A DNA stretch of 64,000 nucleotides, from the UHGV virus genome UHGV-0468246; one strand, 5' to 3'. Below the pieces are notes generated by a model. That model did no database searches and was not told where the DNA came from. It worked only from the letters and a program-made list of their open reading frames with translations. This DNA comes from a virus. Shown piece by piece: positions 7,689 to 57,764 of this stretch. Both the position numbers and the translations under genes were made by a program. Position 1 is the first letter of the stretch. Every line of letters starts with the position of its first letter.

Positions 7689-7704
7689 TCGATTAAATAA
7701 TCGG
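7689..7704. promoter_or_regulatory. near-palindromic site TCGATTAAATAATCGG (family TCGATTAWWTAATCGA)
   Basis: Intergenic between the SSB stop and the dnaE start. One of six copies in the window; AT-rich 14-16-mer in a 65% GC genome. Confidence 0.45.
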
Positions 7705-7739
7705 GAGGGACTTCGCAGCCCCTCCCTAGAACGCGTCTG

Positions 7740-9092
7740 CTAAAAAGGGATATCCTCGTCGTAGACGGAAGCGCCGACGCTACCGGCAGCGTCAGTCCAC
7801 GGCACCGTAGCAGCCGGTTGCTGCGGCGCGGCCTGCGCGGGCTGCGGCGCGGGCTGGACTGGCTGCGGCTGCATGGGCTGCGAGCCGACCGGCTGCGGCA
7901 TGTACGCGCTTTGCACGGGTGCCGCTGCGGGCTGCTGTGGAGCCGTCTGCGGGGCGTACTGCTGCTGGGAGGGCATCGGTGCGGGCTGGGACGCAACCGG
8001 AGCCGCAGGGGCGCTCTGAACGCCTTGCGGGGCCATCGGGGGCTGCATGGGCACGGAAGCCGGAGCCTGCGCGAACTGCTGCGGCGCGGCCTGCGCGGGC
8101 TGCGAGAACTGCTGCGTCGGAGCGGCGTACCCCGGCTGCACGGGCGCTCCGTAGGCGGCTGCGGGCTGGGCGGCTGCTGCGAGCGTGCTCTGGGCGGCAC
8201 CGGCGAGCGTCGAGGGCGCATAGCCCGGAACCGCACCGTCTTCCGGCGTGAAGCCGGGGACGTAGATTCCCTTGCTCGTGTAGTACTGCGGCGTGCCCTT
8301 GAAGGAAACGTGCTCCGCGAGGGTGCGCGTCATGTACGGACGGTAGCGCTCGATGTCCACCACTTCGGCGGGGCGCTGAATCTTGGTCACGACGTAGGTG
8401 CGCATGTCGCTGCGGTACACCTCGTAGTCGTAGTACGTGATCGGGTCGCAGAAGTCGTCGTCCTTGCTGGTGAGCTGCGCCCAGAAGTTGGAGTACGCCT
8501 GATCGACGATCACGACGTTCGGCACCATCGCGCCGTTGCGCTCCACCATCTCGTCCTCGATGCTCACGATCTGCTCGACCGGCATGCCGCGCCCGTCGGT
8601 TCCGCGCTCGCGGTTCACCTTGCGGATGACGGCGTAGGCGCACATGCGGTCTTGCGGGACGTTGGCCCCCATGTACTTCGTGCCGTCGCGCTTCGTCTTC
8701 TCGACCTGCGTCTGGCACAGGGGGCACGCGTAGGGCTGGTTGTTGTCGATGTCGTCGAGGCACAGGACGTAGCCCCCGTTCGGGATGTAATGGAAGCCGC
8801 CGCCGCGCACGCCCTCCTTCACCGTGATAACGTCGGTGTCCGCGAAGGGGCGCTGGCAGATGGGGCACACGGGGTTCTGCCCCGTCTGCTCCTTCGTGCG
8901 GTTCCACATGTCCTGCGGAATCTCGATGTTGCACGAGCATCCGACCGACGCGTGGTTGACCACCACGTTGTCCACCATCGGGGACAGGAAGCGCAGCACC
9001 GCGCTCGAACCTATGTCCAGCTTGAAATAGCCGTAGCCCGAAGAACCCTTGTTCTCCGCGTTCTGCGCAAGGCGCTCTACCAATGAACTCAT
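7740..9092 (-). CDS. ssDNA-binding protein, atypical (zinc-ribbon core, long Q/P/A-rich linker, SSB-type DEDIPF C-terminal tip)
   Basis: 450 aa. Two Cys4-like clusters (CSC...CPIC; CPLC...C), ~150 aa low-complexity PQA linker, ends DEDIPF as bacterial SSB ends DDDIPF. Confidence 0.6.
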   Translation of the reverse strand: MSSLVERLAQNAENKGSSGYGYFKLDIGSSAVLRFLSPMVDNVVVNHASVGCSCNIEIPQDMWNRTKEQTGQNPVCPICQRPFADTDVITVKEGVRGGGFHYIPNGGYVLCLDDIDNNQPYACPLCQTQVEKTKRDGTKYMGANVPQDRMCAYAVIRKVNRERGTDGRGMPVEQIVSIEDEMVERNGAMVPNVVIVDQAYSNFWAQLTSKDDDFCDPITYYDYEVYRSDMRTYVVTKIQRPAEVVDIERYRPYMTRTLAEHVSFKGTPQYYTSKGIYVPGFTPEDGAVPGYAPSTLAGAAQSTLAAAAQPAAAYGAPVQPGYAAPTQQFSQPAQAAPQQFAQAPASVPMQPPMAPQGVQSAPAAPVASQPAPMPSQQQYAPQTAPQQPAAAPVQSAYMPQPVGSQPMQPQPVQPAPQPAQAAPQQPAATVPWTDAAGSVGASVYDEDIPF

Positions 9093-9664: not shown

Positions 9665-9719
9665 CTCGGTGCCCGACCAGAAGAACGCGTCGCCGCCCGT
9701 CGCCGAGAGAACCAGCCCC

Positions 9720-9884: not shown

Positions 9885-9930
9885 TTCCGTCTCCTTTCGT
9901 CGGGGCGGCAATCATACCATGGCTGTAAGC

Positions 9931-9960
9931 CAAAAGTTAAAACAAAAAGTTAAGAATACG
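9931..9960 (-). promoter_or_regulatory. AT-rich TCTTAACTTTT direct-repeat island (candidate promoter)
   Basis: Sense cgtattCTTAACTTTTTGTTTTAACTTTTggcttacagccatggTATGAT: TTAACT -35-like box and TATGAT -10-like box before the 9884 gene. It overlaps the primase stop. Confidence 0.35.
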
Positions 9961-10882
9961 CCCATGACGGCACGACTTCCCTTCCGTACACCGCCTCCCA
10001 GCATTCGCGCTTCGTCATCGCCGCCGGGTCGTCCCGCGTCGGAAGGACGGAGAAGACCTTGCAGAACGGCTCCAACATGCGCATGGCACGCAGCGTACCG
10101 GCGTGGCCCGCCTCGTCCGGGTCGTAGAAGACCAGCACGCTGTCGAACTTCTGGCGTATCAGGCGGGCCTGACCGTCGGACAGCTGGCACCCGAACGATG
10201 CCACCGGGTTGGGGAAACCGTACTGATCGAGCATGATTGCCGAAAGCGGTGCCTCCACCAAGATGCAGCTGTCGCCCTGCGAAGCGTTGTCGTATCCGAA
10301 CAGGATGATCTCGCGAGCCATGTCCTTGCTGTGGAGCCACTTCGGGAACACGTCGTTCGTGAGGGCGCGGGCCGTCCACGCGACCAGCTTGCCGCCGAAG
10401 AAGACGGGCACGACGGCCCTGTTCATCGAAGGGTCGTAGCCGAGCCTCCACTTCGCCACCGTCTGGTCGTTGAAGCCGCGCTCGCGCCAGTACGGGCAAT
10501 CGTGCCTAGTCCACTCCTCAACGTCGCGCTCCAACGGCGTGAGCGTCACGGACTTGTATGAGCTTCCCGCCATGAGCTGCTGAATCTCCGAGAACGACAG
10601 GTCGCCGTACAGGAGCCGGAGCGCCTGCGAGCGCGAGCATGAACGCTGCCTCATCACCAAGCCCGCAGCGTCCCCGCTGAAGCCGCAGCTGAAGCAGTGG
10701 TGGCGCAGCGTGTTCAGGTTGATCGACCACGACGGCTTCTTGTCGCCGTGCCGATGGTTCTCCGGGCACGGGCACGATGCCCACAGCTCGTCCCCGCTGA
10801 TATATGAGTTCTTCAGCTCCAAAAGGTCTATCAGCTTAGACGAATGAACCGGTCGCACATCGCACCTCCTCTTATGCCGCAT
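9950..10882 (-). CDS. dnaG: DNA primase (DnaG-like; CHC2 zinc finger plus TOPRIM)
   Basis: CPCPENHRHGDKKPSWSINLNTLRHHCFSCG zinc-binding motif; TOPRIM-like EAPLSAIML...YDPDEAG. Confidence 0.8.
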   Translation of the reverse strand: MRHKRRCDVRPVHSSKLIDLLELKNSYISGDELWASCPCPENHRHGDKKPSWSINLNTLRHHCFSCGFSGDAAGLVMRQRSCSRSQALRLLYGDLSFSEIQQLMAGSSYKSVTLTPLERDVEEWTRHDCPYWRERGFNDQTVAKWRLGYDPSMNRAVVPVFFGGKLVAWTARALTNDVFPKWLHSKDMAREIILFGYDNASQGDSCILVEAPLSAIMLDQYGFPNPVASFGCQLSDGQARLIRQKFDSVLVFYDPDEAGHAGTLRAMRMLEPFCKVFSVLPTRDDPAAMTKRECWEAVYGREVVPSWAYS

Positions 10883-10884
10883 CG

Positions 10885-10900
10885 TCGATTATTTTATCGG
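10885..10900. promoter_or_regulatory. near-palindromic site TCGATTATTTTATCGG, 2 nt upstream of the primase ATG
   Basis: No Shine-Dalgarno; sense TTTACT-17nt-TAAAAT-cgacgATG suggests a promoter that yields a leaderless primase transcript. Confidence 0.35.
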
Positions 10901-10950
10901 ATGTTAAAGAAAAAGTAAAGCAAGAATTAAGACAATAATGAAGATTATCG
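10901..10950 (-). promoter_or_regulatory. AT-rich island with TCTTAA(T/C)T repeats between helicase stop and primase
   Basis: Sense cattattGTCTTAATTCTTGCTTTACTTTTTCTTTAAC; same motif family as 9931, 15876, 18046 and 58095. Confidence 0.35.
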
Positions 10951-13296
10951 GATGGTGCGCGGGTTGCCGTTGTCGTCCCTCATGAGGTCGATGAGGGCTT
11001 GGTACTTCAGCTCCCATCGCAGCTTGTAGCCCATCCTCCCGTAACGTCGGGTCTTCAGCGTGACGAGCTTCATCACGCTTATGTTCTCCTCCTCCTCGGT
11101 GCACCCCAGCGCCCAGATAACGTCCGCAAGCTGCTCGACAACCGACGAGTGCGCGATGTCCTGCGCGGTGCCTATGCCGTCCTTCGCGTTCTTAACGCCC
11201 TCTCGCGTCATCTGGTGGAGCAGCAGCACCGGCATCTTCTGGTTGTCCGAAGGCGACGCTATGAGGTTCTTCAGCGTGTAGATGCAGTCAGCCGTCTGCT
11301 CGTAAAGCGACTGAATCTTCGGGTTCTTCTTCACGAACTGAAGCTGGTCGATCACGACGAAGTTGCATCCGCACATCTTGGCGTTCTGGATGAGGGCGCT
11401 CGGCGTGCGCTCCGGCATGGGAGGCTGGTCGATGACGAGCTTTCCGGGCAGGCCGCCTATCTCGTCGCGCGCCCTGTCGAGGGCCTGAACGTAGCGCGGC
11501 ATCTCGATGCCCTTCAGGAACTTATCGACGGGAACCACGATCTGATCGCGGTTGACGTGCAGAAGCTCCGTGCGCCGCCCGATGTCGTAGGGGTCTAGCT
11601 CCAAGCTGGCGAAGTAGACGTTCCACCCTTGCCGCGCCGCCTCCAAGGCGGTCTTGGCGGCGAACCACGTGTTGTGCGTCACGATGTAATCGTCCGTCAG
11701 GTAAAGATGCTCCGGGTCGTCAACCATGATGCATTGCATCTCCGTGTCGAAGCCCAAGTCCTCGACATCGACTATCGAGACGTAGCGGTGAAGGAACTTG
11801 CGATTCGCAACGGCATCGTGCGCGCGCTCGCGACATTCGTGCTTGCCGGATGACGTGATGCTTTCGGCGGTCATCACCGACACAACCCATTCGTCCGACT
11901 TACCGGCACGGCGTTTCATTCGCGCCCGCGCGCACATTCCCAGCGAGCGGCACAACGACACGACATCATCAGCAAGCCTCTTTGAAGCCGTCGAGTAGGT
12001 CTTGCCTCCGTTGCCCATCATGCACCCGTCCGTGTCCATAAGGCCGCGAAGCAGGTCAAAACGCTGCTCTGCCGATGCTCCAAGGTAGTCGGCTGGAATG
12101 AACTTCTCATAAGATTTCACGTTCAGCCCAAGATCGACGACCGCGCTTGAAAGCGGGTTCATGTTCCACTTCGGCAGGTACGATATTCCATAAGAGCAGT
12201 TATCGGCGTTGACCTTCTTGACAGCGTAGTCTTCGCCCAGTCTCTCGCAAAGACTGTTCACCACATCGTCCTCGACGCTCGAAAACGCAAGCGAGCCTCC
12301 GGGAACCTGTGATAGGCATCCGTCGCCGATGAGCACGCCGAGCACGTAGGGGTCGATTGGAAGCTCCTTGCGCGACATCTCAACGGCATCATTGACCGGC
12401 ACCCTCCAACGATACGCCTTGCCGCTCATCAGGCCACGCGCGATCATCTCGCCGAGCGTCATGGTGCGCTCCGAAACGCAAGGAATGCCGTTCGCCTTCG
12501 TCTTGTACGCCGTCGTCCACAAATGGTCGATGCAGCAATCGGCATGTCGCCCGTCGGCAAGATGCACCCGGTACGCACGCTTTTTGCCCTGCGGGTACAC
12601 TCCTATAACCCGTGCAAGCGTGCCTCGGCGCGTTCGCACCTTGTCGCCTACGCGAATCTCGCCCATCGGCTTGAACCCATGCTCCGTGAGAACCTTCGAG
12701 TAAAGCGGCTGGGCCTTGCCCTTGCCCGTCGGGGCGACGAGAACCGCAAGCTCGCCGGGCTTGATGCCGCCCGTCTCCACGTTCAGCTCCTCGAAGGGGT
12801 ACGGCGCGCCGACCTCGGCCAGCTTCGCGTTCGCCATCTTCTTGTACAGCTCCATGCTCTCGCCGTCGCCGTACACGATCTTCTGCTGCCTCGGCGTTAC
12901 GTTGTCAACGATCACGGACAGGGTGTCGCGCAGCATCTTCACCTTCTGCTCCGCGTCAAGCCCCATGTTCTCAACGCCCATGCGCAGCGCGTCGGTAAGC
13001 TGGAACTCGCAGTACTGGTCTTTGAGCTTCTTCGACAGGTACGACGGCGCGGCACCTGCCGCCCCCTGCGTCAGCGCGTCGTAGTCGGGGAACCGCTCGC
13101 GCAGCACGTCGAGCGTGGGCGCTCCCCTCATGGCCGCGAAGTTCAGGAAGTAGTCGCTGGCGAAGCTGTACATCTCCGCCATCTTCGGGTCGGCGAACTG
13201 CGACGCGTCGATGCCCGACTGGTAGTAGACCATGAGGGCGTTCGGGTCGGTCAAGGTCGCGGCGATCTCCGTCTCTACGTCGAGGGCCATTACCAT
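10945..13296 (-). CDS. dnaB: replicative DnaB-like helicase, interrupted at the P-loop by an intein
   Basis: DnaB N-domain, then Walker A APTGKGK|[intein]|TWFAAK...; extein junction restores GKGKT; downstream RecA-like motor domain. RBS GGGAGGA precedes ATG 13296. Confidence 0.85.
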   Translation of the reverse strand: MVMALDVETEIAATLTDPNALMVYYQSGIDASQFADPKMAEMYSFASDYFLNFAAMRGAPTLDVLRERFPDYDALTQGAAGAAPSYLSKKLKDQYCEFQLTDALRMGVENMGLDAEQKVKMLRDTLSVIVDNVTPRQQKIVYGDGESMELYKKMANAKLAEVGAPYPFEELNVETGGIKPGELAVLVAPTGKGKAQPLYSKVLTEHGFKPMGEIRVGDKVRTRRGTLARVIGVYPQGKKRAYRVHLADGRHADCCIDHLWTTAYKTKANGIPCVSERTMTLGEMIARGLMSGKAYRWRVPVNDAVEMSRKELPIDPYVLGVLIGDGCLSQVPGGSLAFSSVEDDVVNSLCERLGEDYAVKKVNADNCSYGISYLPKWNMNPLSSAVVDLGLNVKSYEKFIPADYLGASAEQRFDLLRGLMDTDGCMMGNGGKTYSTASKRLADDVVSLCRSLGMCARARMKRRAGKSDEWVVSVMTAESITSSGKHECRERAHDAVANRKFLHRYVSIVDVEDLGFDTEMQCIMVDDPEHLYLTDDYIVTHNTWFAAKTALEAARQGWNVYFASLELDPYDIGRRTELLHVNRDQIVVPVDKFLKGIEMPRYVQALDRARDEIGGLPGKLVIDQPPMPERTPSALIQNAKMCGCNFVVIDQLQFVKKNPKIQSLYEQTADCIYTLKNLIASPSDNQKMPVLLLHQMTREGVKNAKDGIGTAQDIAHSSVVEQLADVIWALGCTEEEENISVMKLVTLKTRRYGRMGYKLRWELKYQALIDLMRDDNGNPRTIR
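11671..12714 (-). mobile_element. intein (Ala1 ... THN / Thr+1; class-3-like) with LAGLIDADG homing endonuclease, inside dnaB
   Basis: Starts AQPLYSKVLTEHGFKPMGEI, ends DDYIVTHN|T. Block-B DHLW, block-F Cys (EMQCIMV). LAGLIDADG motifs LGVLIGDGC and LLRGLMDTDGC. Local GC is lower than the flanks. Confidence 0.75.
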
Positions 13297-15812: not shown

Positions 15813-15875
15813 CGTTCCATCTCCTTTTGTTGGTTGCAATGACAAGTCATATGTTAAACGGTCTCGCGACCGTTG

Positions 15876-15910
15876 TAAAGATAAAAGTTAAGAATAAAAG
15901 TTAAGACTTA
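15876..15910 (-). promoter_or_regulatory. AT-rich TCTTAACTTTT direct-repeat island followed by a small hairpin
   Basis: Sense taaGTCTTAACTTTTATTCTTAACTTTTatctttac, then aacggtcgcgagaccgtt (7-bp stem), ~55 nt upstream of ATG 15812. Confidence 0.35.
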
Positions 15911-16258: not shown

Positions 16259-18019
16259 TTAAAAGCCGAGTAAGTATTCCATGTCGTTCATCATATCATT
16301 CTCGCCAGCCGCTTCATACTCGCCTATGCCCATCTCCTGCGCCAGCGCCTTGCGGCCCGCCATGGTCTCCTCTATGCGCTCCTCGATTGTGTCGCGCGTC
16401 ACGAAGCGGTATATGGTCACGCAGTCGTGCTTGGAGCTGATGCGGTGGATGCGGTCGCTGCGCTGCTGGTAGCGCGAATGCAGCGGCGGCGTGTCGTAGT
16501 GGAGCAGGTAGCGCCCCTCCGGAAGGTCTATGCCCTCGCGCCCAGCGTCGGACATGAGCATGAGGTTGTAGGTGCTCCCCTCTCGGAAAGACCGCTCGAT
16601 CACGCCGCGCTGCGCGTCCGTCTGCCCTCCCATGTACATGAGCGGGCGGTAGCGCTCCAAGTGCTTCGACAGCGGTATGAGGCAGTTGTGCGTGTGCTGG
16701 GCGAACACCACCATCTTCTCGCCGCCTCCCATGATCTGGTCTACCAGCTCCTCGGTCGCCTTCAGCTTCTCGCTGTTCTTAGACCCCGCAAGCTCCGGCG
16801 CGTGGCGCTGCACTATCCGGCGAATCTCGCGCAGCTGCTCGTCCCAGAACGGGTTGTCGCCTTCGTAGCGCCACACGTCCTCCATCAGAAGAACCTCCGG
16901 CATCCTGCACACGCGCTGAAGCATGAGCATGAACAGCGAGCGCTGCTTCTCGTCCCGGTCTACGCTGCCGCCGTACGCGGCGATCTCGTCGTACAGGGCG
17001 CGCTCCGGCGGCGACAGCTCCAAGTCAAGCACGATCTCCTGACGCTTGGGGAACTCCGCCGCTATCTCCGGGTTGGTCTTCTCCGCCATGAACACGCGGG
17101 GAGCCGAAAGCAGCCCCATAACGTCGAGGTTCTGGAAGCCGAGGTAGCGGTTCCACATGTCGCGCTCGCCGTTGCCGTACGTGAAGTAGTGCTCGAAGTC
17201 CTTCACGGTGCCGTAGATCGAGGCATCGAGGATGCGCCATTCGTTGTAGTAGTCCTCCGGGCTTTTCTCCAACGGCGTGGCGGTCAGGCCGCACTTGAAC
17301 CTGATGTCGAGCGTCTTTTCCAGCTTCTTGAACTTCTGGTGGCGGGGCCGCGCTCGGCTCTTCAACCGCTGAACCTCGTCGTACACGAAGAAAAGGTGCT
17401 TCCCGCGCAGGGCGCGCTCTATGAAGTTCCAGTCCTTCGTGTTGGTTCGGTCGTAGTTGACGACCCATATGTCGGAATCGTCGGTGTTGTACCACGCTTG
17501 GCGCTTCGCGGGCTTCGCGTTGCGGTTGACCGTGCCGACCGTCAGGCTCGTCGCCTTCTCCAACCACGGCACCCACTGCTTGACGAGCGGGGCCGGGCAG
17601 AACACCACGATCTTATCGACGGTGCCACGGTCGAACTCGCGCACGGCGAGCATCGTCCCCATGGCCGTCTTCCCCGTCCCGCACGAGCATATGAGCATGG
17701 TGTTGGGAACTCCGTCGAGCGCGTGGCCGCATCTGTTCTGAAACCTCTTCAGCTCGAACGGGAGCGTGAGGGACGGAGATTCGATGGGCGATTCGTCGCG
17801 CACCTGCCGCAAGCGCTCCGCCGCCCGCTCCGTGAACATGACCTCCATCGTCCTCGCCATGGTCTGGCACAGCTCGACGATGCGGTCGGAGTTCTTCAGC
17901 AGATGGTCGCGGGCGAGTATCCCGCTGTGGACGAACGGCATCAGCGCCGCCTCGTCGCCGTTGATCTTGAACTGCCCTCGGAACTCCTCGGACAGGTCAA
18001 CGCAGACCGTCTCTTTCAA
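16259..18019 (-). CDS. SNF2/Rad54-family helicase
   Basis: Helicase motifs I (CSCGTGKTAMG), II (VYDEVQ), III (TATPLEKS), VI (QQRSDRIHRIS); TTG start after an AAGGGAGATGGAGG RBS. Confidence 0.8.
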   Translation of the reverse strand: MKETVCVDLSEEFRGQFKINGDEAALMPFVHSGILARDHLLKNSDRIVELCQTMARTMEVMFTERAAERLRQVRDESPIESPSLTLPFELKRFQNRCGHALDGVPNTMLICSCGTGKTAMGTMLAVREFDRGTVDKIVVFCPAPLVKQWVPWLEKATSLTVGTVNRNAKPAKRQAWYNTDDSDIWVVNYDRTNTKDWNFIERALRGKHLFFVYDEVQRLKSRARPRHQKFKKLEKTLDIRFKCGLTATPLEKSPEDYYNEWRILDASIYGTVKDFEHYFTYGNGERDMWNRYLGFQNLDVMGLLSAPRVFMAEKTNPEIAAEFPKRQEIVLDLELSPPERALYDEIAAYGGSVDRDEKQRSLFMLMLQRVCRMPEVLLMEDVWRYEGDNPFWDEQLREIRRIVQRHAPELAGSKNSEKLKATEELVDQIMGGGEKMVVFAQHTHNCLIPLSKHLERYRPLMYMGGQTDAQRGVIERSFREGSTYNLMLMSDAGREGIDLPEGRYLLHYDTPPLHSRYQQRSDRIHRISSKHDCVTIYRFVTRDTIEERIEETMAGRKALAQEMGIGEYEAAGENDMMNDMEYLLGF

Positions 18020-18045
18020 CGCGCCTCCATCTCCCTTGGTTTTCC

Positions 18046-18084
18046 TCTAGTGTAAGACAAGAAGTTAAGAAAATCAAGTAAAAG
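18046..18084 (-). promoter_or_regulatory. AT-rich TTCTTAACTT island between terminator and SNF2 gene (candidate promoter)
   Basis: Sense TTGATTttcttaacttcttgtctTACACT: -35-like and -10-like boxes with 17-nt spacing, immediately after the 18070-18115 terminator. Confidence 0.4.
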
Positions 18085-18115
18085 AAGAACCCCCTCGGAT
18101 TGCCGTAGGGGGTTC
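18070..18115 (-). terminator. rho-independent terminator ending the structural-gene operon
   Basis: GC-rich hairpin gaaccccctacggcaatccgagggggttc followed by a T-rich run on the sense strand. Confidence 0.6.
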
Positions 18116-18168
18116 TCGGCGCTCATTCAAGCAAGGAGATGGAATCACGCCTCGCTCATTATACCTCA

Positions 18169-20055
18169 TCAGAAGAAGGAATACATGTAGTTTATCGTGT
18201 GCGTCGTGCTTCCCCCGACCGCGCTCTTGTACGTCACGACTATCTCGCCGTGCGAAAGGTCGATGGATGCCGGGAATGTCAGCGCTATGTCCTTCCCGAC
18301 CGTGGCCGTTATGCCCGTCTGGGCCGTCTCGGAGCCGGGGTAGAAGCCGTTCACCTTGACCGACGATATGAAGGCCGTCGGCAGGACGGAGGGGTCGTAG
18401 CTCGCCTCCCCTTCGTATATGACGTACGCGCTGACGTGTATGGTGCGCGCCTGCACGCCGATCATGTTGAGCTGGTCGGTGACGCGCAGCCCGTCGGGGC
18501 CGACGTAGTACACGTCCGCGTAGCTGGCGATGGCGTTGAACCTCGCGGTCTTCGCCGCCACTCCGGGGAAGGTGATTCCGAGCGTGTTGTTCGAGGTCGT
18601 CGCCGTCCCCTTCCAATGCACGAGGTAGTCGTTCCCCGCCACCGTCTCGAAGTCGGTGAGCGTCTTGGAGAACGTCGGCTTGTAGGCGCTCATGTACTTG
18701 TCGTGGACGCTCTTCACGTCCCCCGTTGACAGGCTCAAATGCGGGTTCAGCAGCACGTAGGAAGACGTGCTCCATATCGCCGCGCCGAAGCTGGCGCTCG
18801 GAAGGTAGAACTCGGCTCCGTCCATACTGCCCTGCGCGTCAGAATAGTAGAAGTAGCCGGGGTCGAACGCCGTGATGGCGGCCAGAGAGCTTGTTATGGC
18901 GAGCGTCGCCGTGCTCTGGTTCACCTTGACCGTGAGCGTCGCCGTGCCAGCGGCCACGTAATCGACGGAGCAGGTCTTGCCGACGGTCATGCGGAACGCC
19001 GTCGTGTTGCTTATCGTCCACGTCGCCGCCGACGAGCCGTTGCGCGTGTCGTACCGGATGTCGCCGATGACGTAGGTCGCGTAGAACTCGTTCGTATAGC
19101 TCACGTAGTCCGTCGCGCCGAGACGGTTGATCTTCAGCTCCTTTATGTGGGGGTCGAGCGCAACGCCGGAGCTGTCGATGGCGGAGACCGTGTACGTCTT
19201 GGAAGGGTCGTAGTTCTCCAACTGGTAGGAGGTGAGGCGCGTCTTGCCCACCAGCTCGTCGTCCGCGTAGATGTAGTAGACGAACACGCCGTTGCCGCCC
19301 TTCGCCTCCGTCCACGTCGCATAGCCGACAATCGACACGGCGAAGTCGCTCTCGCCGTCTGCGGTGTTCCACGTGAGCGCGTCAGGCGTTCCGAGCTGGT
19401 AGTCGGGCTGCGGTATGAGGGCGAACGCCTGAAGCCATTCCTCCGGGTTGTTGCTCATGACGCGCGCCTTCAGCGTGTTCGTCGGGCGCGGGAGCGTCAT
19501 CCGGGAGTAGGCCTTGTTCGGAAGGTCGTACCACTGGTACCACTTGTTGCCGCCGTCCGGGCTGAACTCCCACAGGAGGTTCGAGTAGAGGAACATCGAG
19601 TTGTCGAACCACGCGGTTCCCGCGCCGGTCGTGTACAGATCGAACGAGAGGCCCACGCTCTCCGTGGTGTCGTCGTTCTTGCCCCAGCTGCGCCCCTTCT
19701 CCATCTCCTGCGGGTAGTAGCCGAACGTCTGGCGCGTATGGTACTCCGGGCCTTCGCCCTGCGGGCCGATCTCGTCGAGGACGGCGAACATGTTAGCGCC
19801 CGTCGTCGCGCGCGGGTCGGTGGGCGGCTCGAACGTGGGTGTCCACGCCGACTTGGTGCGGGCGAAGAAGCGGGCGGCCTCGTCCACCGTCTTGCGCTCG
19901 CCGATGCCGGTCTCCACCGACGGGTCGAACACGTTGTAGGAGTATTCGCCGAGCCGCCTCTGCCCGTAGCGCACCATGCGCACGAAGCCCTTGGCGGGCT
20001 TCCCGTCCTCGAAGCAGTTTCCTATCCTCATCGTAGGGTTCACAGCGTCCTCCAT
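18169..20055 (-). CDS. tail fibre / receptor-binding-like structural protein
   Basis: ~630 aa, beta-rich and Ser/Thr/Gly-rich; last gene of the late operon before the terminator. Start uncertain (20055 or 20028). Confidence 0.45.
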   Translation of the reverse strand: MEDAVNPTMRIGNCFEDGKPAKGFVRMVRYGQRRLGEYSYNVFDPSVETGIGERKTVDEAARFFARTKSAWTPTFEPPTDPRATTGANMFAVLDEIGPQGEGPEYHTRQTFGYYPQEMEKGRSWGKNDDTTESVGLSFDLYTTGAGTAWFDNSMFLYSNLLWEFSPDGGNKWYQWYDLPNKAYSRMTLPRPTNTLKARVMSNNPEEWLQAFALIPQPDYQLGTPDALTWNTADGESDFAVSIVGYATWTEAKGGNGVFVYYIYADDELVGKTRLTSYQLENYDPSKTYTVSAIDSSGVALDPHIKELKINRLGATDYVSYTNEFYATYVIGDIRYDTRNGSSAATWTISNTTAFRMTVGKTCSVDYVAAGTATLTVKVNQSTATLAITSSLAAITAFDPGYFYYSDAQGSMDGAEFYLPSASFGAAIWSTSSYVLLNPHLSLSTGDVKSVHDKYMSAYKPTFSKTLTDFETVAGNDYLVHWKGTATTSNNTLGITFPGVAAKTARFNAIASYADVYYVGPDGLRVTDQLNMIGVQARTIHVSAYVIYEGEASYDPSVLPTAFISSVKVNGFYPGSETAQTGITATVGKDIALTFPASIDLSHGEIVVTYKSAVGGSTTHTINYMYSFF

Positions 20056-22039: not shown

Positions 22040-25000
22040 TTAGTACACGCCGTTGTCGTAGACGGCTTCGTTGTACACGTTGTTTATGCACTCGCGCTGC
22101 ACGCCGTCAATCCACACGTCCATGCTGCGCCTGTTCTTGTCGTTCGGGTCGATGCGCCCCGGCGCGGAATGCACCGGCTCGCTGCCCTGCTCGCCCCATT
22201 GTATCAGCACGTAGGACTTCACGCCCGCCTTGAACGGCGCGGGGCTTTTGTCCGCGAAGGTGTTCACGAAGCCGTCAGGCTCGACTATGCGCACCATGAG
22301 CTGCTGTTCGTAGGTGTAGACGCTGAAGCGCCTGCTCTCGTCCATGTAGTCGATGATGTAGCGCTCCTCGGCGGTGCCGCGCTGCCCCGACGGCACGCGG
22401 GCCAATGCCTCGTCCGGGATGTACTCGAACGTCAGGAAGCCCGCGCCAGCGTCGATGCGGAACGCCTCCTCGATCTGAAGCGACGCTTCCGCGTCGTCGA
22501 TGTGAGCGCCCTTCTTCGCCTCGTAGGATATGGTTCCCCTCGGGTCGTTCACGGCCATCTCGTAGCACGGCTGCTCCAAGGGCTTGAACACCTTGTGGTA
22601 GTCCCTCATCGGCGCGCGCGTCTCGTTCGGGTTCCCGAAGTACACGTAGTACGCCCCCACGAACTGGTTGAGGTCGTAGTCGTAGTAGCCCTCCGCTTTT
22701 GTGCCTGCGGGAATCTCGTCCTGCACCCTGAACCACAGCTCCATGTTGTCCGTGATGTCGCAGTCGATCTCTTGGCACTCCACGCCGTTGTAGTAGATCA
22801 CGCGGAAGTCCTTCAGGTCTTGGCGCACCATGGGCGTTGTCTGCGCCCGCAGGATGGAGAAGTCGATGTTCGGCACGAACACCGTGGTTCCGGTCGGCAC
22901 GAAGCCCGACAGCGGTATGCGCAGGCGGTAGTCGTACGCGTTGCTCCACCACATGCCGCCGGTCTGGGGCGTGAACACCGTGCCGATGGTCGTCCACTTG
23001 CCGCCCTCGACTTCGTAGCGCATGTTGAACACTTCCTCGTCGGAGAGGTCTTTGCAGCGCAGGTTCCACGTCCGCGCCTCGACGCTGAACACGTCAACCT
23101 GAACCGACGCTATGGCCTGCGAGCGGACGAGCTTGCTCTGCGACTGTATGCCGATCTCGTCGCCGTCGTCGGGTGCCGGGGTGTACGGTGTCGCCTTGCT
23201 CCCCGATTCCAGCTTCAGGGTGCCCTTCCTCACCTCGACCCATTTGGTAGCGTCGTACGAAGCGAGCGAGTAGAACAGCAAGGCTTGGTAGTTCGTCCTG
23301 ACGTTCGCGTTCGCCATGCTGAACGTCCATTCGTACCTGTTCCACTCGGTCTCCGACATGGCGGACGGGTTCTTCGACGCTATCGACACGTTCGGTGCCG
23401 TCTTCTGCAAGAAGTAGAACAAGCCGAACGAATCTATGTTCCCACGGTACTCGAAGGACAGCGTTACCGTCTCGCCGTCCTGCACGCAGCCGGGGAACGC
23501 GAGCGGCACCGACATGCTCACGTTCGAGTTTCCGCCGAACGTCAGGCGCAGGGCCTCCCCCACGTCGGTCAGCTTGCCAACACTTGCGTTGTACAGGCTT
23601 ATCCCGTCCTGCCCGTTCGCCGTCGCCGTTATGGGCATCTCCTTGGTGAACTTCAGCAGGTTCGCCCCCGGCCCGCTGGCGGGAGCGTCCATCTTCAGCA
23701 CGGTTCCGGAAACGCCGAACTCGGTGCTCTCGACCTCGGCGTTCAGGCCGCTCCACTCCTCGATCATGTCGGAAGGGTGGTCGAACACCTCGCGCGGCGG
23801 GTTCTGGTTCACGGCGAAGTCGAAGCTCTTGAACGCCACCGCGCTGTTCACGTTGACGAACTCCAAGCTGTTCATCTCCTCGGTGGAGGGAACCATGCGC
23901 TCGTCGCGCGTCAGCTCGAAGCCCACGTTCTTGTCGATCACCGAAGCGTCGTTGGCGAACGCTAGGAACTCGCTGTCAGGCTCGACCGCCGCGCGGAGGC
24001 CCGACAGGCCGAACGACACCTCGCGTATGGCCGCGACGAACGCAAGCTCGTCGGAGCGCTCGCGGCGCACGGTCTTGTAGGCGTGCCGCCCGTCTTCGTA
24101 GAAGCGCATCTTCACCGTCTTGCCCTCGACCGGCTCGCGCGGCGACTGCGGAAGCTGCCGCTCGTAGCGCATGTTCTCCGCGAGGACGGAGCTGATCGCC
24201 CCGTTGTCCGTGAAGCGCCAGCTCGCCGGTGTCACCAGCGAGGGGAGGTACAGGGGATTGTAGCTCTGCGATATGATGTCCTCGATGCCGCGCTGGCGCT
24301 CGGCCTCTTGGTAGATGTTCGACGTTCCGATGGCATCGTACACCCCGAGCCGGTCTTCGTAGATCGGGCTGTCCTGCGTGGTGAGGAGCTGGCGGTACAG
24401 CTCGGTCGCGTAGGTGCTGGCGGGCTGCTGCTCGAAGTAGTGCTTCACCTCGTAGGGGTATTCCAGCTCCTCGACCTCGATGCCGTCCGACACAACCGTG
24501 TAGGGGATGGCCGACAGGCCGGTGAACTCCAACTTGACGAACGTGCACTTGCGCAGCGGCAGCGAGTAGTCGGCGCTCTGCAAGGAGTACACGGCGGGGT
24601 ACGGCTTCCACGATGCCGTCTCCCAGTCGCCGTCCTCCGTCGAGTAGACGTTCATCTGGCACCCGCCGTACACCGCGTCGATTCTCATGGAGTTCACGCG
24701 CGAGGCGTTGCCGCTCGCGTCCCTCAAATCGAACACGAGCCATTCTAAGGCGCTCTGCGTGACGTTCGGCTTGCTGCACCAGAACGTGGACGGCATGCCG
24801 TCGTGCAGCCTCTCCGGGCCGCTCACGGCCATCTCCGTCTCCACCTTGTTGCCGAACGGGTCGGAGAACACGGCGGGCGCGAAGTCCTCTGCGTCCATCA
24901 CGTCGTAATGGAGCGACAGACCGGCCATGTCTATGGAGAACGGGAAGTCGTCGGCCTTCAGAGCGCCGTCCGGCAGCGTCTTGTAGTAGGGCGCTTCGAG

Positions 25001-33396: not shown

Positions 33397-33437
33397 TCTA
33401 CCATTCGCGGCGCTCCCCCTCCATGCAGCTCGGCACC

Positions 33438-33453
33438 TCGATTATTTAATCGA
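33438..33453. promoter_or_regulatory. near-palindromic site TCGATTATTTAATCGA overlapping the C39 gene stop codon
   Basis: Lies ~40 nt upstream of the lysin C ATG. Confidence 0.45.
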
Positions 33454-38572: not shown

Positions 38573-39000
38573 CTACGCCGTCCTCTTCCAGACGTTGACG
38601 GAGATGTGGAGCGGGTAGTAGTCCGCCCCCCCCCTGTTGCGTTCGTCCATGCGTCGAACGTGTATAGCGAATCTTCGACAACGCCGGAAAGGGCGAAGTT
38701 CTCGCTGCCTTCCACGTTCTCCCTCAACGTGGTCGTGACAGACCTTGTTCCCGAATGGATGTGCGACGGCATCTGGCCGACGCTTATCTTCTTCGAGCCG
38801 CCTACGGCACCAGCCGCAGCGTACCCAGCCGTCCCGGCGCACGCGAGCACGCCGCCCGTCAGCTTCACCCACGTGCCGCCGAAGACGGTGTTCGGGTCTT
38901 CCGAGCCGACGGTGAGGTAAAGGCTGTTCACCGGGCGCACGAGGTCGAGCATCGTCTTGTCGATGCCGCCCTCCAGATGGAACCCGCTCAATCTTGCCAT
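38573..39000 (-). CDS. tail-collar-domain mini-protein, array member g, frameshifted at a G9 tract (reads in frame into member f as sequenced)
   Basis: RBS AGGAGG before ATG 39000. GGSKKISVGQMPSHIH…NATGGG, then the frame is lost; G10 restores ADYYPLHISVNVWKRTA-stop at 38573. As sequenced, track ORF 37678..39000 fuses g and f. Confidence 0.5.
38626..38634 (-). repeat. poly-G tract 6 (G9 on sense strand) inside member g
   Basis: Plus-strand C9. Confidence 0.8.
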
Positions 39001-51050: not shown

Positions 51051-51051
51051 C

Positions 51052-52236: not shown

Positions 52237-52318
52237 GGCTTTCTCCTTACTTGCGGGTTGACTTTCCCTTGGTTGCAAAGTCTACCTCAAAACGGGAAGA
52301 CGTGCGACATGCGCGGTG

Positions 52319-52334
52319 TCGATTAAATAATCGA
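52319..52334. promoter_or_regulatory. near-palindromic site TCGATTAAATAATCGA in the post-capsid intergenic region
   Basis: Lies next to a G9-CACGG element (52353-52361) and ~85 nt upstream of ATG 52236. Confidence 0.45.
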
Positions 52335-52352
52335 GGCCCTTGACAGGCCGTG

Positions 52353-52361
52353 CCCCCCCCC
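52353..52361 (-). repeat. G9 homopolymer (sense) in an intergenic leader, followed by CACGG as upstream of dnaE
   Basis: Sense ttatGGGGGGGGGcacggcctg, compared with ataGGGGGGGGGcacggaATG upstream of dnaE. Confidence 0.8.
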
Positions 52362-52416: not shown

Positions 52417-52447
52417 AAAAAAAAAGAACCCCTCTCGCGAGGGGTTC
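52417..52447 (-). terminator. strong rho-independent terminator after the major capsid gene
   Basis: Sense hairpin gaacccctcgcgagaggggttc followed by T9. Confidence 0.8.
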
Positions 52448-52461: not shown

Positions 52462-53415
52462 TTAAGCTCCATTCAAGTCCATGCGGACGACACCGTAGGA
52501 GTTGGCGATGATCTCGTTGATGAGTTCGCTGTACACCCAGCCGATGGTGAAGTTCTCGGCCTTGGGGTTGTCCACGCCGTCGAGCTGCTTCAGAATCGGC
52601 ATCCAGCCAAGATACTCCGGCTCCGGAACGAGGTAAATCTTGTTCATCGGGCAGATGATCGAGGTCATGATGGAGAAGCGGCCCATCTTGGTGATCGGCT
52701 TGCCGTCCATCACGTCGTCGAGGAACTTAACGCCCGTGGTGTCGAGCTTCCACTTGTACAGGTCGTTCGCCGTCGCCGGGTTCATGATGACGCGGTTGGA
52801 CTGCAAGCGGTTCTGGATGGCGATCTTCTCGGCATCGTAGAACGCGCCGGGGTTGATCTCGCCGGTGACCGTGGTCACATGCGAGGTGAGGCCCGCCCAG
52901 TCCGGGTTTTCGGAGGTGATCTTGGACACGGCAGCGTCGAGCGAGGAGAACAGGTAGCCGTCCTCCTGCTCCATGATGCGCTGCTCGGCCTCGCCCTTGG
53001 CGTAGTCCACCATGTTGATGGCGAGCTTGTAGATGTCCTCCTCGGCGATCTGGGGGAACGCCGCGATGCGGATGACCTCGTAGCGTACGCGGTTGCCCTC
53101 GTACTGCGCGATCTTCACTTCGTTGTCGTGCGGTTGCAGCTTGTAGGCCGCGCCGAACTCGGTGGTGATGTCGTAGAACAGGCCAGCGCCCTGCGGCAGC
53201 GGGTCTTCCATCAGAACGGAGCGCACGATGCCCTCGTAGCGGAGACGCATGATGATCGGGCCTACCACGCCCTGCGCGACCTTGGTGGACGCGAGACGCA
53301 TGTCGTGGCGGTTGTCCGTCAGAATCTTGTTGAGCGCCGCCTGACGCTTCGCGGGGGACGACGGGTTCGCACCCATCTCCGCGACGATCTCGGCGGAAGT
53401 CTTAGGCATTGCCAT
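52462..53415 (-). CDS. major capsid protein (HK97-fold candidate)
   Basis: 317 aa, last gene before a strong terminator, preceded by scaffold-like genes. Confidence 0.6.
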   Translation of the reverse strand: MAMPKTSAEIVAEMGANPSSPAKRQAALNKILTDNRHDMRLASTKVAQGVVGPIIMRLRYEGIVRSVLMEDPLPQGAGLFYDITTEFGAAYKLQPHDNEVKIAQYEGNRVRYEVIRIAAFPQIAEEDIYKLAINMVDYAKGEAEQRIMEQEDGYLFSSLDAAVSKITSENPDWAGLTSHVTTVTGEINPGAFYDAEKIAIQNRLQSNRVIMNPATANDLYKWKLDTTGVKFLDDVMDGKPITKMGRFSIMTSIICPMNKIYLVPEPEYLGWMPILKQLDGVDNPKAENFTIGWVYSELINEIIANSYGVVRMDLNGA

Positions 53416-55040: not shown

Positions 55041-55100
55041 CGGTCTACCACTGGCCGTTCGGCTTATCAGGCTCGTTTCAACCCACGTCCTCACGGGCGA

Positions 55101-55349
55101 CTAATCGTAGAAGTACAGTATGCTGCTGTCGTCGGTCACCATCGACGGGCTTACGCCGCCCCTATCGACGAACGGGTCGAGCACGGGCGTTGTGAACACC
55201 GCGTCGCCCTTCACGAAGTAATGCTCGCCGTCGGCGTAGAACGTGTCGTCCCACCTCGTCGATTCGAGCGCGCGGACGAACGCGTTGTCCGCCGGGGTGC
55301 TCCTGTCCCAAGCATCACGCAGAAAATTGTAAAGTTCAAGGCTCGTCAT
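55101..55349 (-). CDS. small hypothetical protein
   Basis: 82-aa track ORF. Confidence 0.4.
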   Translation of the reverse strand: MTSLELYNFLRDAWDRSTPADNAFVRALESTRWDDTFYADGEHYFVKGDAVFTTPVLDPFVDRGGVSPSMVTDDSSILYFYD

Positions 55350-55361
55350 CGCAAGACCTCC

Positions 55362-57764
55362 CTATGCACCCAATGCCGCATTGGAGCCGGTGCGCCTGCC
55401 GACCTCCTCGGTTACGGCGCTCTTCGCGCCCTCCAACGTGTCCTCGTCGCCCTCGGCCATCTTCTCGCCGGACGCGCCGCCGCTCGTCATGTCGATCAGC
55501 TCCCAGTGGTACTTTCCGGGCGTGGAGTAGTCGTAATCGACCTCCATCTCGTACGGGTGCTCGAACTTGGCCCACACGCCGTCCTCCTCTTCCCAGCCGT
55601 CGTCGGCGGTCTTCGCGGAGGCCGTGCGGCCCAGAGCGTCGTCGATGGCGGCCTGCGCGCTCGGGAAGTAGCCTTGGCGCGGATAGCCCTTCACGCCCAC
55701 GTCTTCGGTGACCCAGTACCAGTTGTAGGTTCCGTCCGCCTCGACTTCGGCGTTCACGATCTTGCCGTCGCCCGTGAAGCGCCACGGACTGCCGAGAGCG
55801 CCGCCGCCCATGGTCTCGAACTTCGTCCAGCCGTCGGGCGCGGGCGTTGAGCGCCCGGTGTCGTGCCCGTCGCTCGCCGCCGTCTTGGCGGGGAGGCGCT
55901 GGGCGTTCTGCGCCAGCCACTCGTCCGCGAGCTTCGCGCAGTACTCCATGGCAGGCTCGATCATGCAGAAGCCGTCCTCCGGGTTGTCGTACTTCGCCAG
56001 CAGCTGGTCGTACGGCATGCTCTCGACCTCGGCGTAGGGCAGGCCGTCGATTGAGACGGTCTTGACGCGGGCGATCTCCAAGCTCGGCTCGTACGCGCCG
56101 TCCAGCGTTCCGTCGTAATAGGCGTAGCAGCCCTTCGCGTCGTAGTAGAGGTTTCCGGGAAGGTTCGTCCAGCCAGCCCACGACACGTTGACGGTGGAGC
56201 CATCGCTTCCGACGTACTTGTACCAGTAGTCTTCGCCCGCATGCTCCCATCCTCCCATCTGCGCGGCCTTTTCAGCCGTGGTGACGCGCACGGTCTTGGG
56301 AGGCGCTGCGGAAACGACCTCGTTGTACGTCATCTTCTCGAACCGCTCCGCCTGACGCAGGGCGTAGTCCATGTTCGGCATCATGCCGAACTCGTGCACC
56401 TGCCCCTTGTCGGAGATGACGGTGAGCTGCGGCTTGGAACCGATCTGCTGTTGGACGACACCGATGGTAGCCCTCTTGTCCTTCGTCTGGCCTTCGTAGA
56501 AGGCGTAGAACGGCAGCTCCTCGTCATGGTAGCTCACCTCCGGGGCGAGGCCGCCGCTGGCCGTCTTGCGGGAGCCGACGGAAGACCTGACGGAAACGTC
56601 GATGTCCTTCCCGTCGTTGTACTCCCTATCGAAGGAGACCGTGTATTCGTCCCAAATGGAAAAGTCGTCGAAAGGCGTTTCCTTGCCGGAGACCATCTGG
56701 GATATTTTGCGCGTCATCTCGCCGTCAAGCTCAACGTCGCTCCGCATGTGCACGTTGATGCCGTCAAACACCTGCCCGTAATTGAACTCGGACGACACCT
56801 TCCTCGATGCCGTGCGGCGCGCGGAGCGCTTGCGCCCTGCGGAGCGAACGGCCCTGTTCTCGGCGCTCTTCTTCTCCATGTCGTCGTCCTTTCCCTCGGT
56901 CTCCCGCTCGACCTCTCCGATGCCTTCGTTGAACTCGTCCTCCTCGGACGGGTCGAGGTCGATGAGCAGCTTGTGAAGCTCTCCGGCGTGCTCCTTCTCC
57001 TCGTCGCGTATGTCCTCCAAGCCCTTGCGCACGGGGTCGCCCTCGGGCAGGAGGTCGATGTAGGCGCTGTACATCAGGATAGCGTCGTTCTCCGCCTTCA
57101 TGTTGTCGCGGATGGCGCGCTTCTTCAGCTCCTCCTCCGAAAGCTCCTTGGGGTCAACCGGCATCTGCTGCGCGGTCTTCCCCTCCTTCCATTCGCCCTC
57201 GATGCCGTCGGCTTCGAGCTTCGCCACGACGGCATCGTACAGCTCGCCGCCGAGCGCGTCTTGGACGATCTGCCAGTAGCGGTTGTCGTGCTCCTCCATG
57301 GCGGTGCCGTGGTCGTATCCGGCCAAGTCCCCCGCCACGAGCCAGTCAACGACGGCCTGAACCGTGCGGTCGTCCGGCATGGACGCGCTCTTGGGCATCC
57401 TGCCGCTCCCTGAGACCTCCTGAAGCTCCTCGCCGTACTCTGGGAGGGTTATGGTCGTATCGCCCGTCAGATCGGCTCCTGCGGCCTCGGAGGCGGCGTT
57501 GCGCCCCATGCACAGGGGCAGCTTGCCGCTGCCCTCGATCAGCTTGCAGAACTCGCGGGCCTCGTCCTCGTCAGCGCACACCTTGAAGCGCGCGGCCTCG
57601 TTCGGCCTGTCCTTCTCGAAGACACCCGCCCAAACCGTGTCGCCGGTCTTGTCGATGGAGTAGTTGAACGCCTCGCCGCACGATGTCAGCACGCGGGGCA
57701 TCTCCTCCTTCCACCGCAGGGCGGTCTTCGTGCCCTGCTCGATTATTTTATCGGGTGTGCCCAT
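55362..57764 (-). CDS. large virion-module protein (portal candidate?) with a rubrerythrin/ferritin-like E-x-x-H helix pair
   Basis: 800 aa; the segment ENDAILMYSAYIDLL…LEDIRDEEKEHAGELHKLL resembles a diiron-site motif. The palindromic motif lies within codons 3-8 (PDKIIE). Confidence 0.4.
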   Translation of the reverse strand: MGTPDKIIEQGTKTALRWKEEMPRVLTSCGEAFNYSIDKTGDTVWAGVFEKDRPNEAARFKVCADEDEAREFCKLIEGSGKLPLCMGRNAASEAAGADLTGDTTITLPEYGEELQEVSGSGRMPKSASMPDDRTVQAVVDWLVAGDLAGYDHGTAMEEHDNRYWQIVQDALGGELYDAVVAKLEADGIEGEWKEGKTAQQMPVDPKELSEEELKKRAIRDNMKAENDAILMYSAYIDLLPEGDPVRKGLEDIRDEEKEHAGELHKLLIDLDPSEEDEFNEGIGEVERETEGKDDDMEKKSAENRAVRSAGRKRSARRTASRKVSSEFNYGQVFDGINVHMRSDVELDGEMTRKISQMVSGKETPFDDFSIWDEYTVSFDREYNDGKDIDVSVRSSVGSRKTASGGLAPEVSYHDEELPFYAFYEGQTKDKRATIGVVQQQIGSKPQLTVISDKGQVHEFGMMPNMDYALRQAERFEKMTYNEVVSAAPPKTVRVTTAEKAAQMGGWEHAGEDYWYKYVGSDGSTVNVSWAGWTNLPGNLYYDAKGCYAYYDGTLDGAYEPSLEIARVKTVSIDGLPYAEVESMPYDQLLAKYDNPEDGFCMIEPAMEYCAKLADEWLAQNAQRLPAKTAASDGHDTGRSTPAPDGWTKFETMGGGALGSPWRFTGDGKIVNAEVEADGTYNWYWVTEDVGVKGYPRQGYFPSAQAAIDDALGRTASAKTADDGWEEEDGVWAKFEHPYEMEVDYDYSTPGKYHWELIDMTSGGASGEKMAEGDEDTLEGAKSAVTEEVGRRTGSNAALGA

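Follow-up and report, generated by a model that had tools for sequence, protein, structure and literature searches.

A dispersed near-palindromic DNA element in an Eggerthella phage and its relatives, a candidate operator for a dimeric regulator

Introduction

The 64,000-nucleotide stretch of the virus genome UHGV-0468246 that is analyzed here, referred to below as the window, carries an AT-rich near-palindromic repeat in six copies. We propose, with about even confidence, that this repeat is a dispersed double-stranded operator for a putative dimeric DNA-binding regulator, similar to the operator/stoperator networks of other phages. The putative regulator is most probably encoded by the phage itself. 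The site is non-random, symmetric, conserved in position and under selection at the DNA level.

Phages that infect Eggerthella and other gut Coriobacteriia are being considered for microbiome editing, and next to nothing is known of how they regulate their genes. The kind of element described here is familiar from phages; the phage group is unstudied. An 18-bp site that occurs some 16 times per genome, in relatives from 38% to 63% GC, offers an experimental handle for regulator fishing, for mapping the regulon, and for making switchable expression parts.

A 5-kb piece of the window is 99.9% identical, on the opposite strand, to the Eggerthella phage LE2-3 (MW679026; 111,961 bp; host E. lenta DSM 2243), and the whole window aligns to positions 44,725-108,552 of that record at ~99.4%, with a few divergent stretches. 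The window is thus the reverse complement of an LE2-3 relative and its genes lie on the minus strand. Genome-wide motif counts given below refer to the whole LE2-3 record, which extends beyond the window. Our literature search found nothing on LE2-3, and the published E. lenta phage KL11, a 44-kb phage, is unrelated to it. Presumably, the family consists of large (~110 kb) virulent myoviruses of gut Coriobacteriia. Neither the record annotation nor scans of about 100 LE2-3 proteins gave an integrase or a repressor-like helix-turn-helix protein, and there was no sign of lysogeny.

Results and Discussion

The original prediction, made from the sequence alone, was that a near-palindromic 14-16-mer recurs six times and marks operon boundaries. 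A scan of the window recovers all six copies, at 7689, 10885, 29349, 33438, 52319 and 57739 (Table 1). The motif frequency, which had been named as a check, is well beyond chance, dinucleotide-preserving shuffles giving 0.00-0.02 expected matches and reaching six copies in 0 of 100 cases. The element is, however, larger and more numerous than first described, as it spans 18 bp and is present in 16 copies across LE2-3. Its consensus in the sense of the genes is (C)YCRATWAWWTAATYGAG, a near-palindrome of 16-18 bp, and the 18-bp duplex form can be written as CTCGATTATTTAATCGAG. Nine of the LE2-3 copies are wholly intergenic, three straddle stop codons and four are intragenic; the intergenic DNA that twelve copies thus occupy or straddle makes up 5.7% of the genome (binomial P ~1.6e-12). 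The idea of operon boundaries holds only in part: some copies follow terminators or precede genes, but others stand within operons directly before a Shine-Dalgarno sequence, and 4 of the 16 are inside genes.

All 16 LE2-3 copies have an unchanged downstream arm, TAATCGA, with a G next to it in 13 of them, and every one of the ten imperfect arms is an upstream arm. No position outside the 18 bp is conserved in LE2-3, and isolated half-sites are not enriched. We have also aligned 40 pooled sites in sense orientation. In this alignment, positions 4, 5, 7, 10, 12, 13 and 15 are invariant, C2 and A16 are each present in 39 of the 40 sites, and positions 3 and 14 shift jointly by lineage from G:C to A:T. 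The two conserved blocks, CRAT and ATYG, have their centres 10 bp apart with an AT-rich spacer between them, and the central bases are found in both orientations, TTATTTAA and TTAAATAA.

Both in-gene copies of the window, at 29349 in gene 106 and at 57739 in gene 74, encode D-K-I-I-E, as had been pointed out before, and the intragenic copies of LE2-3 encode either this peptide or D-Y-L-I-E. The D-K-I-I-E variant can be read in one frame only, as TAA stops occur in the others. All three DKIIE and both DYLIE peptides in the LE2-3 proteome are spelled by the motif, with codons seldom used by this phage (GAT 13%, AAA 8%, ATA 29%, TAT 9%, TTA 0.8%); the chance of such a spelling is ~1.6e-3 per DKIIE and 4.7e-5 per DYLIE peptide. 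Relatives with 84% and 70% protein identity keep the gene 106 copy, which is identical in L246 and reads TCAATAAAATAATTGA in L247, where VVDKIIE has become AVNKIIE. Since the in-gene copies use rare codons, and since the change of the arm in L247 comes at the cost of an Asp-to-Asn change, the comparison indicates that selection is on the DNA itself, and that here a DNA signal overrides codon usage and even protein sequence. In L244, a relative of 39% GC, three tandem copies 36 and 24 bp apart lie within a DnaJ-domain gene (11422-11497) and encode N-K-I-I-E/G three times.

We reached the contigs of relatives through homologous capsid, primase and gene 105 proteins. Those that bear the motif have GC contents of 59% (L074, L075), 51-53% (L243, L246), 47% (L076), 41% (L077, L078, L247) and 38-39% (L244, L245 and the IMG/VR contig 3300045988_115635), and the motif is present in all these lineages. 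At 47% GC or below, the arms are TCAAT..ATTGA in place of TCGAT..ATCGA, both arms changing together; L074 has one arm of each type. The positional conservation in relatives that had been named as a further check is found for five of the six window sites, which are syntenic in relatives of 38-59% GC; the exception is copy 4, which was not seen at the corresponding junction of L247. Among the sites beyond the window, those between genes 49 and 50 and between genes 54 and 55 are shared with relatives. Relatives also have paired or triple copies with a spacing of 24-36 bp.

As a side observation, the base composition of these phages diverges strongly in relation to their proteins. The capsid gene of L077 (2273-3238) and that of the window (52465-53415) have 87% protein identity, while GC at third codon positions in the capsid gene is 90% in LE2-3 and 40% in L077, with the motif core unchanged; whole loci range from 38 to 63% GC.

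In relatives with 45-49% capsid identity, the motif is absent. The gap that corresponds to that of copy 5 holds a terminator followed by a canonical sigma-70 promoter in two of four such relatives (L201, L202), only a terminator in L199, and a hairpin followed by TATAAT in L200. An exact-pattern scan of IMG/VR with the GC-type motif gave multiple copies only in near-identical (92-99.6%) contigs of the same phage, and it is thus uninformative on conservation, while a primase-based search of the same database gave only relatives of 26-29% identity, which lack a comparable repeat. As judged from these sequences, the element is real and under strong selection, and it belongs to a single clade.

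That the repeat is an operator for a dimeric DNA-binding protein, one of the options named in the original prediction, is the reading that fits these data best. The reasons are the two-fold symmetry, the two blocks one helical turn apart, the joint change of both arms between lineages, the two orientations of the central bases, the lack of selected pairing beyond the site (in the 40 sites, flank complementarity is no higher than in shuffled controls), the lack of enriched half-sites, the tandem arrays, and the variable distance to promoters. Each monomer would read one outer block, CRAT at positions 2-5 or ATYG at positions 12-15, and the AT-rich spacer between them would be easily deformed. 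We infer from the sequence both that a protein binds and in which direction it would regulate at each site.

It is important to point out that several observations weigh against this reading. A symmetric dimer would not call for polarity, yet the site is polar: in sense orientation, A stands at position 11 in 36 of the 40 sites but T at the mirror position 6 in no more than 19, and all ten imperfect arms of LE2-3 are upstream arms. As nearly all genes are on one strand, polarity relative to transcription is inseparable from polarity relative to the genome. In addition, the binder has been sought among about 100 LE2-3 proteins with Pfam and PHROGs, and no Cro/CI-type helix-turn-helix protein, sigma factor, ParB or RNA polymerase was found; the small helix-turn-helix protein near the motif that had been suggested as something to look for was likewise not seen in these scans. 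They gave only the winged-helix, replication-initiator-like gp53 and gp54, both encoded outside the window. For these scans the small proteins were concatenated with GS spacers, which caused false matches to Serglycin. PDB sequence searches with gp54 and gp55 were uninformative, and the idea, formed by eye, that gp55 might be Lsr2-like was dropped, as Pfam gives only a non-significant RHH_9 match. In the AT-rich lineage, several copies are the one conserved feature, with no further promoter in sight, in the stretch from a terminator to a start codon close by, an arrangement that would fit a promoter role. Finally, a palindrome alone cannot separate recognition as DNA from recognition as an RNA hairpin.

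The position of the motif relative to promoters bears on several of these points. LE2-3 has at least two other recurrent promoter types. The first is AT-rich and sigma-70-like, TTTACT-17-TAGAAT with an upstream CTTAATT-rich tract, and is found in the early and replication regions, where about a dozen promoters of the form CTTAATTTCTTTTCTTAA..TTTACT-17-TAGAAT were noticed. The second has an extended -10, TGnTAGAATg, without a -35, and stands before late genes, in some cases 7 nt from the ATG and apparently leaderless. At the primase gene, the motif spans -16 to -1 of a promoter that is sigma-70-like and has TAAAAT for its -10. At LE2-3 30752 and 109207, it begins 1 nt after TGaTACAAT and 8 nt after TGaTAGTCT, respectively. 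A different arrangement is seen at copies 4 and 5, LE2-3 27443, L106 14124 and L245 3446, where a -10 hexamer starts 33-38 nt past the motif, so that the motif centre is near -55. The TG extension is present at all five hexamers except that of copy 5, which is therefore missing from a scan for TGnTANNNT, in which six of ten downstream matches fall in the 33-38 nt range (7-nt window). Two of these six are inside coding sequence, and the four intergenic sites come from two lineages. The block GTTTTGA(G/T)GTAGAC at copy 5 and its spacing are kept in L074.

Other copies are found close to translation starts. Four of them in LE2-3 run straight into the Shine-Dalgarno sequence as TAATCGAGAA(A)GGAG, at a distance of 14-15 nt from the start codon, and the same layout is present at L247 1666 (ATTGAGAAGGAG); altogether, 4-5 of the 16 LE2-3 copies adjoin a Shine-Dalgarno sequence. 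It had further been suggested that at the primase gene the site replaces the Shine-Dalgarno sequence. An in-frame ATG on the sense strand is indeed located 2 nt downstream of copy 2 (10882-10880), but LE2-3 is annotated with a GTG start at 10858, 26 nt past copy 2 and 24 nt past the ATG, and this GTG is preceded by a strong Shine-Dalgarno sequence of its own, GAGGAGG (10865-10871), which makes the replacement doubtful.

With the repeat as an operator, these locations would translate into different actions. Where the site overlies -10/+1 of the sigma-70-like early and replication promoters (primase; LE2-3 genes 55 and 135), a bound dimer would block initiation. Within an operon before a Shine-Dalgarno sequence, or within a gene, it would act as a roadblock, and near -55 of the extended -10 promoters without a -35 (genes 50, 79 and 104) it could recruit RNA polymerase. 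Taken together, these actions would amount to an early-to-late switch.

The motif could instead be part of a core promoter, that is, the -10/discriminator of a phage-specific class used by the host RNA polymerase, possibly with a phage factor, with the transcript starting a few bases after the motif. We consider this unlikely, and the evidence on it is as follows. TAAAAT at positions 5-10 is 17 bp from TTTACT at the primase gene of both the window and L243, the sense direction of 21 of the 40 sites contains TAAAAT, and the element is polar with respect to transcription. The AT-rich copies that follow a terminator without another promoter are 17-23 nt from the start codon (dnaE in L245; the junction of genes 85 and 86), and in L201 and L202 the canonical sigma-70 promoter mentioned above occupies the syntenic gap after the capsid gene. 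However, the hexamer register varies between variants, and no single one (3-8, 5-10 or 8-13) provides A at -11 and T at -7 in all of them. LE2-3 has no conserved -35 or upstream element at the motif, a -35 being present only at the primase gene and at 109207, and copies 14-15 nt from a start codon would start transcripts inside the Shine-Dalgarno sequence. The two-fold symmetry and the joint change of the arms are unexpected for sigma recognition. Also against this reading are the three tandem in-coding copies of L244, a conserved copy 470 nt from the next gene, and still other copies some 35 nt upstream of separate -10 hexamers. The protein scans, as noted, detected no phage RNA polymerase or sigma factor.

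Another option considered was that the motif acts in the transcript, as a short AU-rich hairpin that would be a protein-bound translational operator by the ribosome-binding site, a 5' stabilizer or a processing site. The asymmetric features are always sense-oriented, several copies are fused to the Shine-Dalgarno sequence in the way described above, positions 3 and 14 covary from G:C to A:U (with one G:U case in L074), and folding energies of -4.9 to -8.8 kcal/mol (z = -2.2 to -4.5) are obtained for five of the six window copies. Copy 6, on the other hand, folds at only -2.5 kcal/mol (z = -0.5). A6 faces A11 in half of the copies and C1 faces A16 in eight, which leaves a 4-bp stem; these mismatches are uncompensated, and pairing of the flanks is no better than in controls. 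The orientation of the loop is not fixed, both central sequences being found, and several copies are upstream of the likely -10 of their gene and hence not part of that mRNA. Rfam 15 gave no match at the gathering score in the whole window. The RNA-hairpin reading is weakened by these results, and we regard it as quite unlikely.

A terminator function was also considered. A hairpin adjoins the motif only at 7704-7726, at 52335-52349 and at LE2-3 27443, and most copies have none; a general terminator role was rejected on the grounds that only two or three copies have such a hairpin.

We have also considered that the motif is a site for a phage replication initiator (a gp54-like winged helix) or for nucleation of a nucleoid or xenogeneic-silencing protein, with a role in replication or genome organization, which we judge to be very unlikely. 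The closest pair of copies in LE2-3 is inside and just after gene 54, and two copies directly follow the gene 54 homologue in the AT-rich lineage. Both gp53 and gp54 match PHROG replication-initiator families, gp54 with a weak MarR-like winged helix. One arm of the motif with the spacer (TCGATAAAAT, TCAATAAATT) resembles the high-affinity nucleation motif of H-NS, tCGATAAATT, including its central T-A step (PMC2094087), a likeness that we take as a lead only. H-NS sites are, in contrast, degenerate, non-palindromic and proteobacterial, and no Lsr2 domain was detected in the scanned phage proteins. Sixteen dispersed, mostly single copies are unlike an origin, and the conservation is far sharper than a nucleoid protein needs. 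Furthermore, the perfect 18-mer, the only form searched, has 40 scattered matches in 185,579 species genomes, roughly what chance would give, and Eggerthella and the other Coriobacteriia have no match; the same result speaks against an operator for a host transcription factor, at least in the form of a perfect 18-mer.

The original prediction had also mentioned a recognition site for a homing or packaging enzyme. If the motif were a target for a homing endonuclease, a terminase or a recombinase, or else a small selfish palindrome of no use to the phage, it would be in line with the copy that L074 and L075 have at the edge of a variable inserted gene. Such a motif would also agree with the extended identity, including the Shine-Dalgarno sequence, within the LE2-3 copy pairs 13430/109207 and 1893/111607, which suggests cassette spread. 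The copies are, however, dispersed and positionally conserved, unlinked to HNH, GIY-YIG or terminase genes, and free of conserved flanks and target duplications. They persist at syntenic sites, one of them inside a gene, despite near-saturating synonymous change, which points to purifying selection. The homing or packaging site was accordingly rejected, and we find this whole group of explanations hardly credible.

Returning to the dispersed operator, one observation from the sister lineage should be mentioned. In the relatives of 38-41% GC, a LexA/Cheo-box-like palindrome, GAACAWWTGTTC, is located exactly 4 nt from almost every motif copy, on the upstream side in gene sense whenever the copy is single; some boxes have motif copies on both sides (Table 1; also L251, L252 and L256). 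No such box (GAAC-N4-GTTC) is present at any motif site of LE2-3 and the window. The motif itself lacks GAAC-N4-GTTC, and identity with the LexA/Cheo box was therefore rejected.

A more far-reaching picture, which we offer tentatively and think unlikely to hold as a whole, is that of one polar palindromic operator network in presumably virulent Coriobacteriia myoviruses of ~110 kb. One and the same site would serve for repression at early and replication promoters, for stopping elongation inside operons, and for activation, from about -55, of late promoters without a -35, and the intragenic copies would matter enough to force amino-acid changes. In the AT-rich sister lineage, the fixed 4-bp coupling of every copy to a LexA-type box would link the network with the SOS response of the host, which would hint at a lifestyle as a P1-like carrier or plasmid-prophage. 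If true, a stoperator-like system in a non-temperate phage, or the LexA link in the sister lineage, would widen the known range of such networks.

Comparison with Known Systems

Several regulators are known that each act at a dozen or more dispersed sites of 13-17 bp with variable distance to promoters, namely C1 of phage P1, the regulator of the conserved inverted repeats of Streptomyces phage phiC31, and KorB of plasmid RK2. They control replication and other operons and serve lysogeny or plasmid maintenance, and their binders are known. The present element is similar to these in its dispersed sites, while the sequences and host groups differ.

The stoperators of Cluster A mycobacteriophages (L5 gp71 type) occur in more than 20 copies, dispersed over promoters and short intergenic spaces, and their orientation follows transcription (PMC9283540). 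The 16 copies here are likewise dispersed, mostly intergenic (12 of 16) and polar with respect to transcription. In contrast, the Cluster A sites are 13-bp asymmetric sequences bound by a monomeric immunity repressor of temperate phages, whereas here we have a near-palindrome of 16-18 bp and found no repressor or integrase. By analogy, the distribution and polarity appear closest to the Cluster A operator/stoperator networks; the present element differs from these in the form of the site and probably also in its regulator and in the lifestyle of the phage.

Cluster K phages carry SAS repeats, a conserved 13-bp sequence, GGGATAGGAGCCC, at translation starts and in one orientation. Just upstream of a subset of these are the ESAS, 17-bp imperfect inverted repeats with one arm nearer to consensus and a subcluster-specific consensus (PMC3203893, PMC12699233). 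The motif described here is similar in that a subset adjoins the Shine-Dalgarno sequence, one arm is more strongly conserved than the other, and each lineage has its own consensus. The sequences are unrelated, however, the ESAS arms being 17 bp with a variable spacer. SAS and ESAS are also restricted to the non-structural arm, while the present motif is found in structural modules and within genes as well.

Table 1. Positions of the motif copies and associated features. Coordinates refer to the window unless another record is named.
Feature	Position	Strand	Description	Relatives
Copy 1	7689-7704	minus	Sense CCGATTATTTAATCGA; 27 nt upstream of dnaE ATG (7661); G9 run after it	Syntenic in L243 (13036; same hairpin-plus-motif and G run), L245 (12991), L257
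Copy 2	10885-10900	minus	Sense CCGATAAAATAATCGA; between helicase and primase	Syntenic in L243 (9960; same TTTACT-17-TAAAAT geometry)
Copy 3	29349-29364	minus	Sense TCGATAAAATAATCGA; within gene 106; GAT AAA ATA ATC GAG = D-K-I-I-E	Kept in L246 and L247
Copy 4	33438-33453	minus	Sense TCGATTAAATAATCGA; includes gene 103 TAA stop; 50 nt upstream of gene 104 ATG (33387)	
Copy 5	52319-52334	minus	Sense TCGATTATTTAATCGA; between capsid-gene terminator and gene 79 (ATG 52236; first gene after the capsid gene), 82 nt upstream of gene 79	Syntenic in L074/L075; L077/L078/L255
Copy 6	57739-57754	minus	Sense CCGATAAAATAATCGA; codons 4-9 of gene 74 (start 57764); encodes D-K-I-I-E	Kept in L074; absent in L076
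Sigma-70-like geometry over copy 2	10891-10919	minus	TTTACT (10914-10919), 17 bp, TAAAAT (10891-10896) = motif positions 5-10	
-10-like TAGAAT preceded by TG	33395-33400	minus	37 nt downstream of copy 4, 7 nt before gene 104 ATG; leaderless look	
-10-like TAGACT without TG	52279-52284	minus	34 nt downstream of copy 5	
G+C-rich hairpin GGGAGGGGCTGCGAAGTCCCTCC	7704-7726	minus	Adjoins copy 1 upstream; terminator-like, motif as T-rich tail	
Intrinsic terminator GAACCCCTCGCGAGAGGGGTTC then T9	52417-52447	minus	After capsid gene, upstream of copy 5	
G+C-rich hairpin	57789-57808	minus	Upstream of gene 74 start and copy 6	
Terminator GAACCCCTCGCGAGAGGGGTTC + T run	52417-52447; LE2-3 record 16703-16753, 56919-56968			
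AT-rich promoter family, window	10901-10945, 9885-9950, 15815-15910, 18020-18170 and elsewhere			
AT-rich promoter family, LE2-3 record	8057-8330, 11225-11452, 12740-12842, 22730-22838, 108030-108135			
LexA-like box + motif	L106 5567-5591, 11527-11578, 14124-14148; L079 5895-5946; L108 2388-2412; L245 12970-13006			
C8-C10 runs	3260-3268, 7668-7676, 34628-34637, 35521-35530, 36461-36468, 37319-37327, 38143-38151, 38626-38634, 52353-52361	plus		

Additional Observations

Some annotated gene starts beside motif copies in LE2-3 and L243 are probably mis-set. In L243 (13023-13080), the called dnaE start is upstream of the motif and the conserved MPH.. start comes after it. The start of LE2-3 gene 141 (record 111638-111823) may be a GTG 15 nt after the copy at 111607, in frame and 62 codons upstream of the annotated start.

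The plus strand of the window has nine runs of C8-C10, that is, G runs on the sense strand. Those at 3260-3268 and 7668-7676 are 3-6 nt before the starts of gene 127 and dnaE as (g/a)ATA-G9-CA..ATG, in the place of the Shine-Dalgarno sequence, and a start of this kind is also seen at the primase gene of L243. Six of the runs fall among genes 96-102, a cluster of tail-fibre-like paralogues. Beyond the window, four tail-fibre-like genes on the minus strand of LE2-3 (record 16.8-18.9 kb) each have TTGAC..C8-9..TGTTACG upstream. Homopolymer runs of this length slip easily, and the expression of these genes may therefore be phase-variable.

The capsid gene and the GH25 lysin gene end in the same way, each being followed by a terminator of about 50 nt, GAACCCCTCGCGAGAGGGGTTC with a T run. 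Besides the AT-rich promoter family, three copies of AAGAAAAAGTTAAGACAA..TGTGGTAAGAT were noticed. Finally, gene 71 (60393-63503), annotated as a tRNA synthetase, encodes a protein of 1037 amino acids with Hint and intein-splicing matches below the Pfam gathering cut-off and may carry an intein; the distant relative L199 has a faint intein match at the position equivalent to gene 71.

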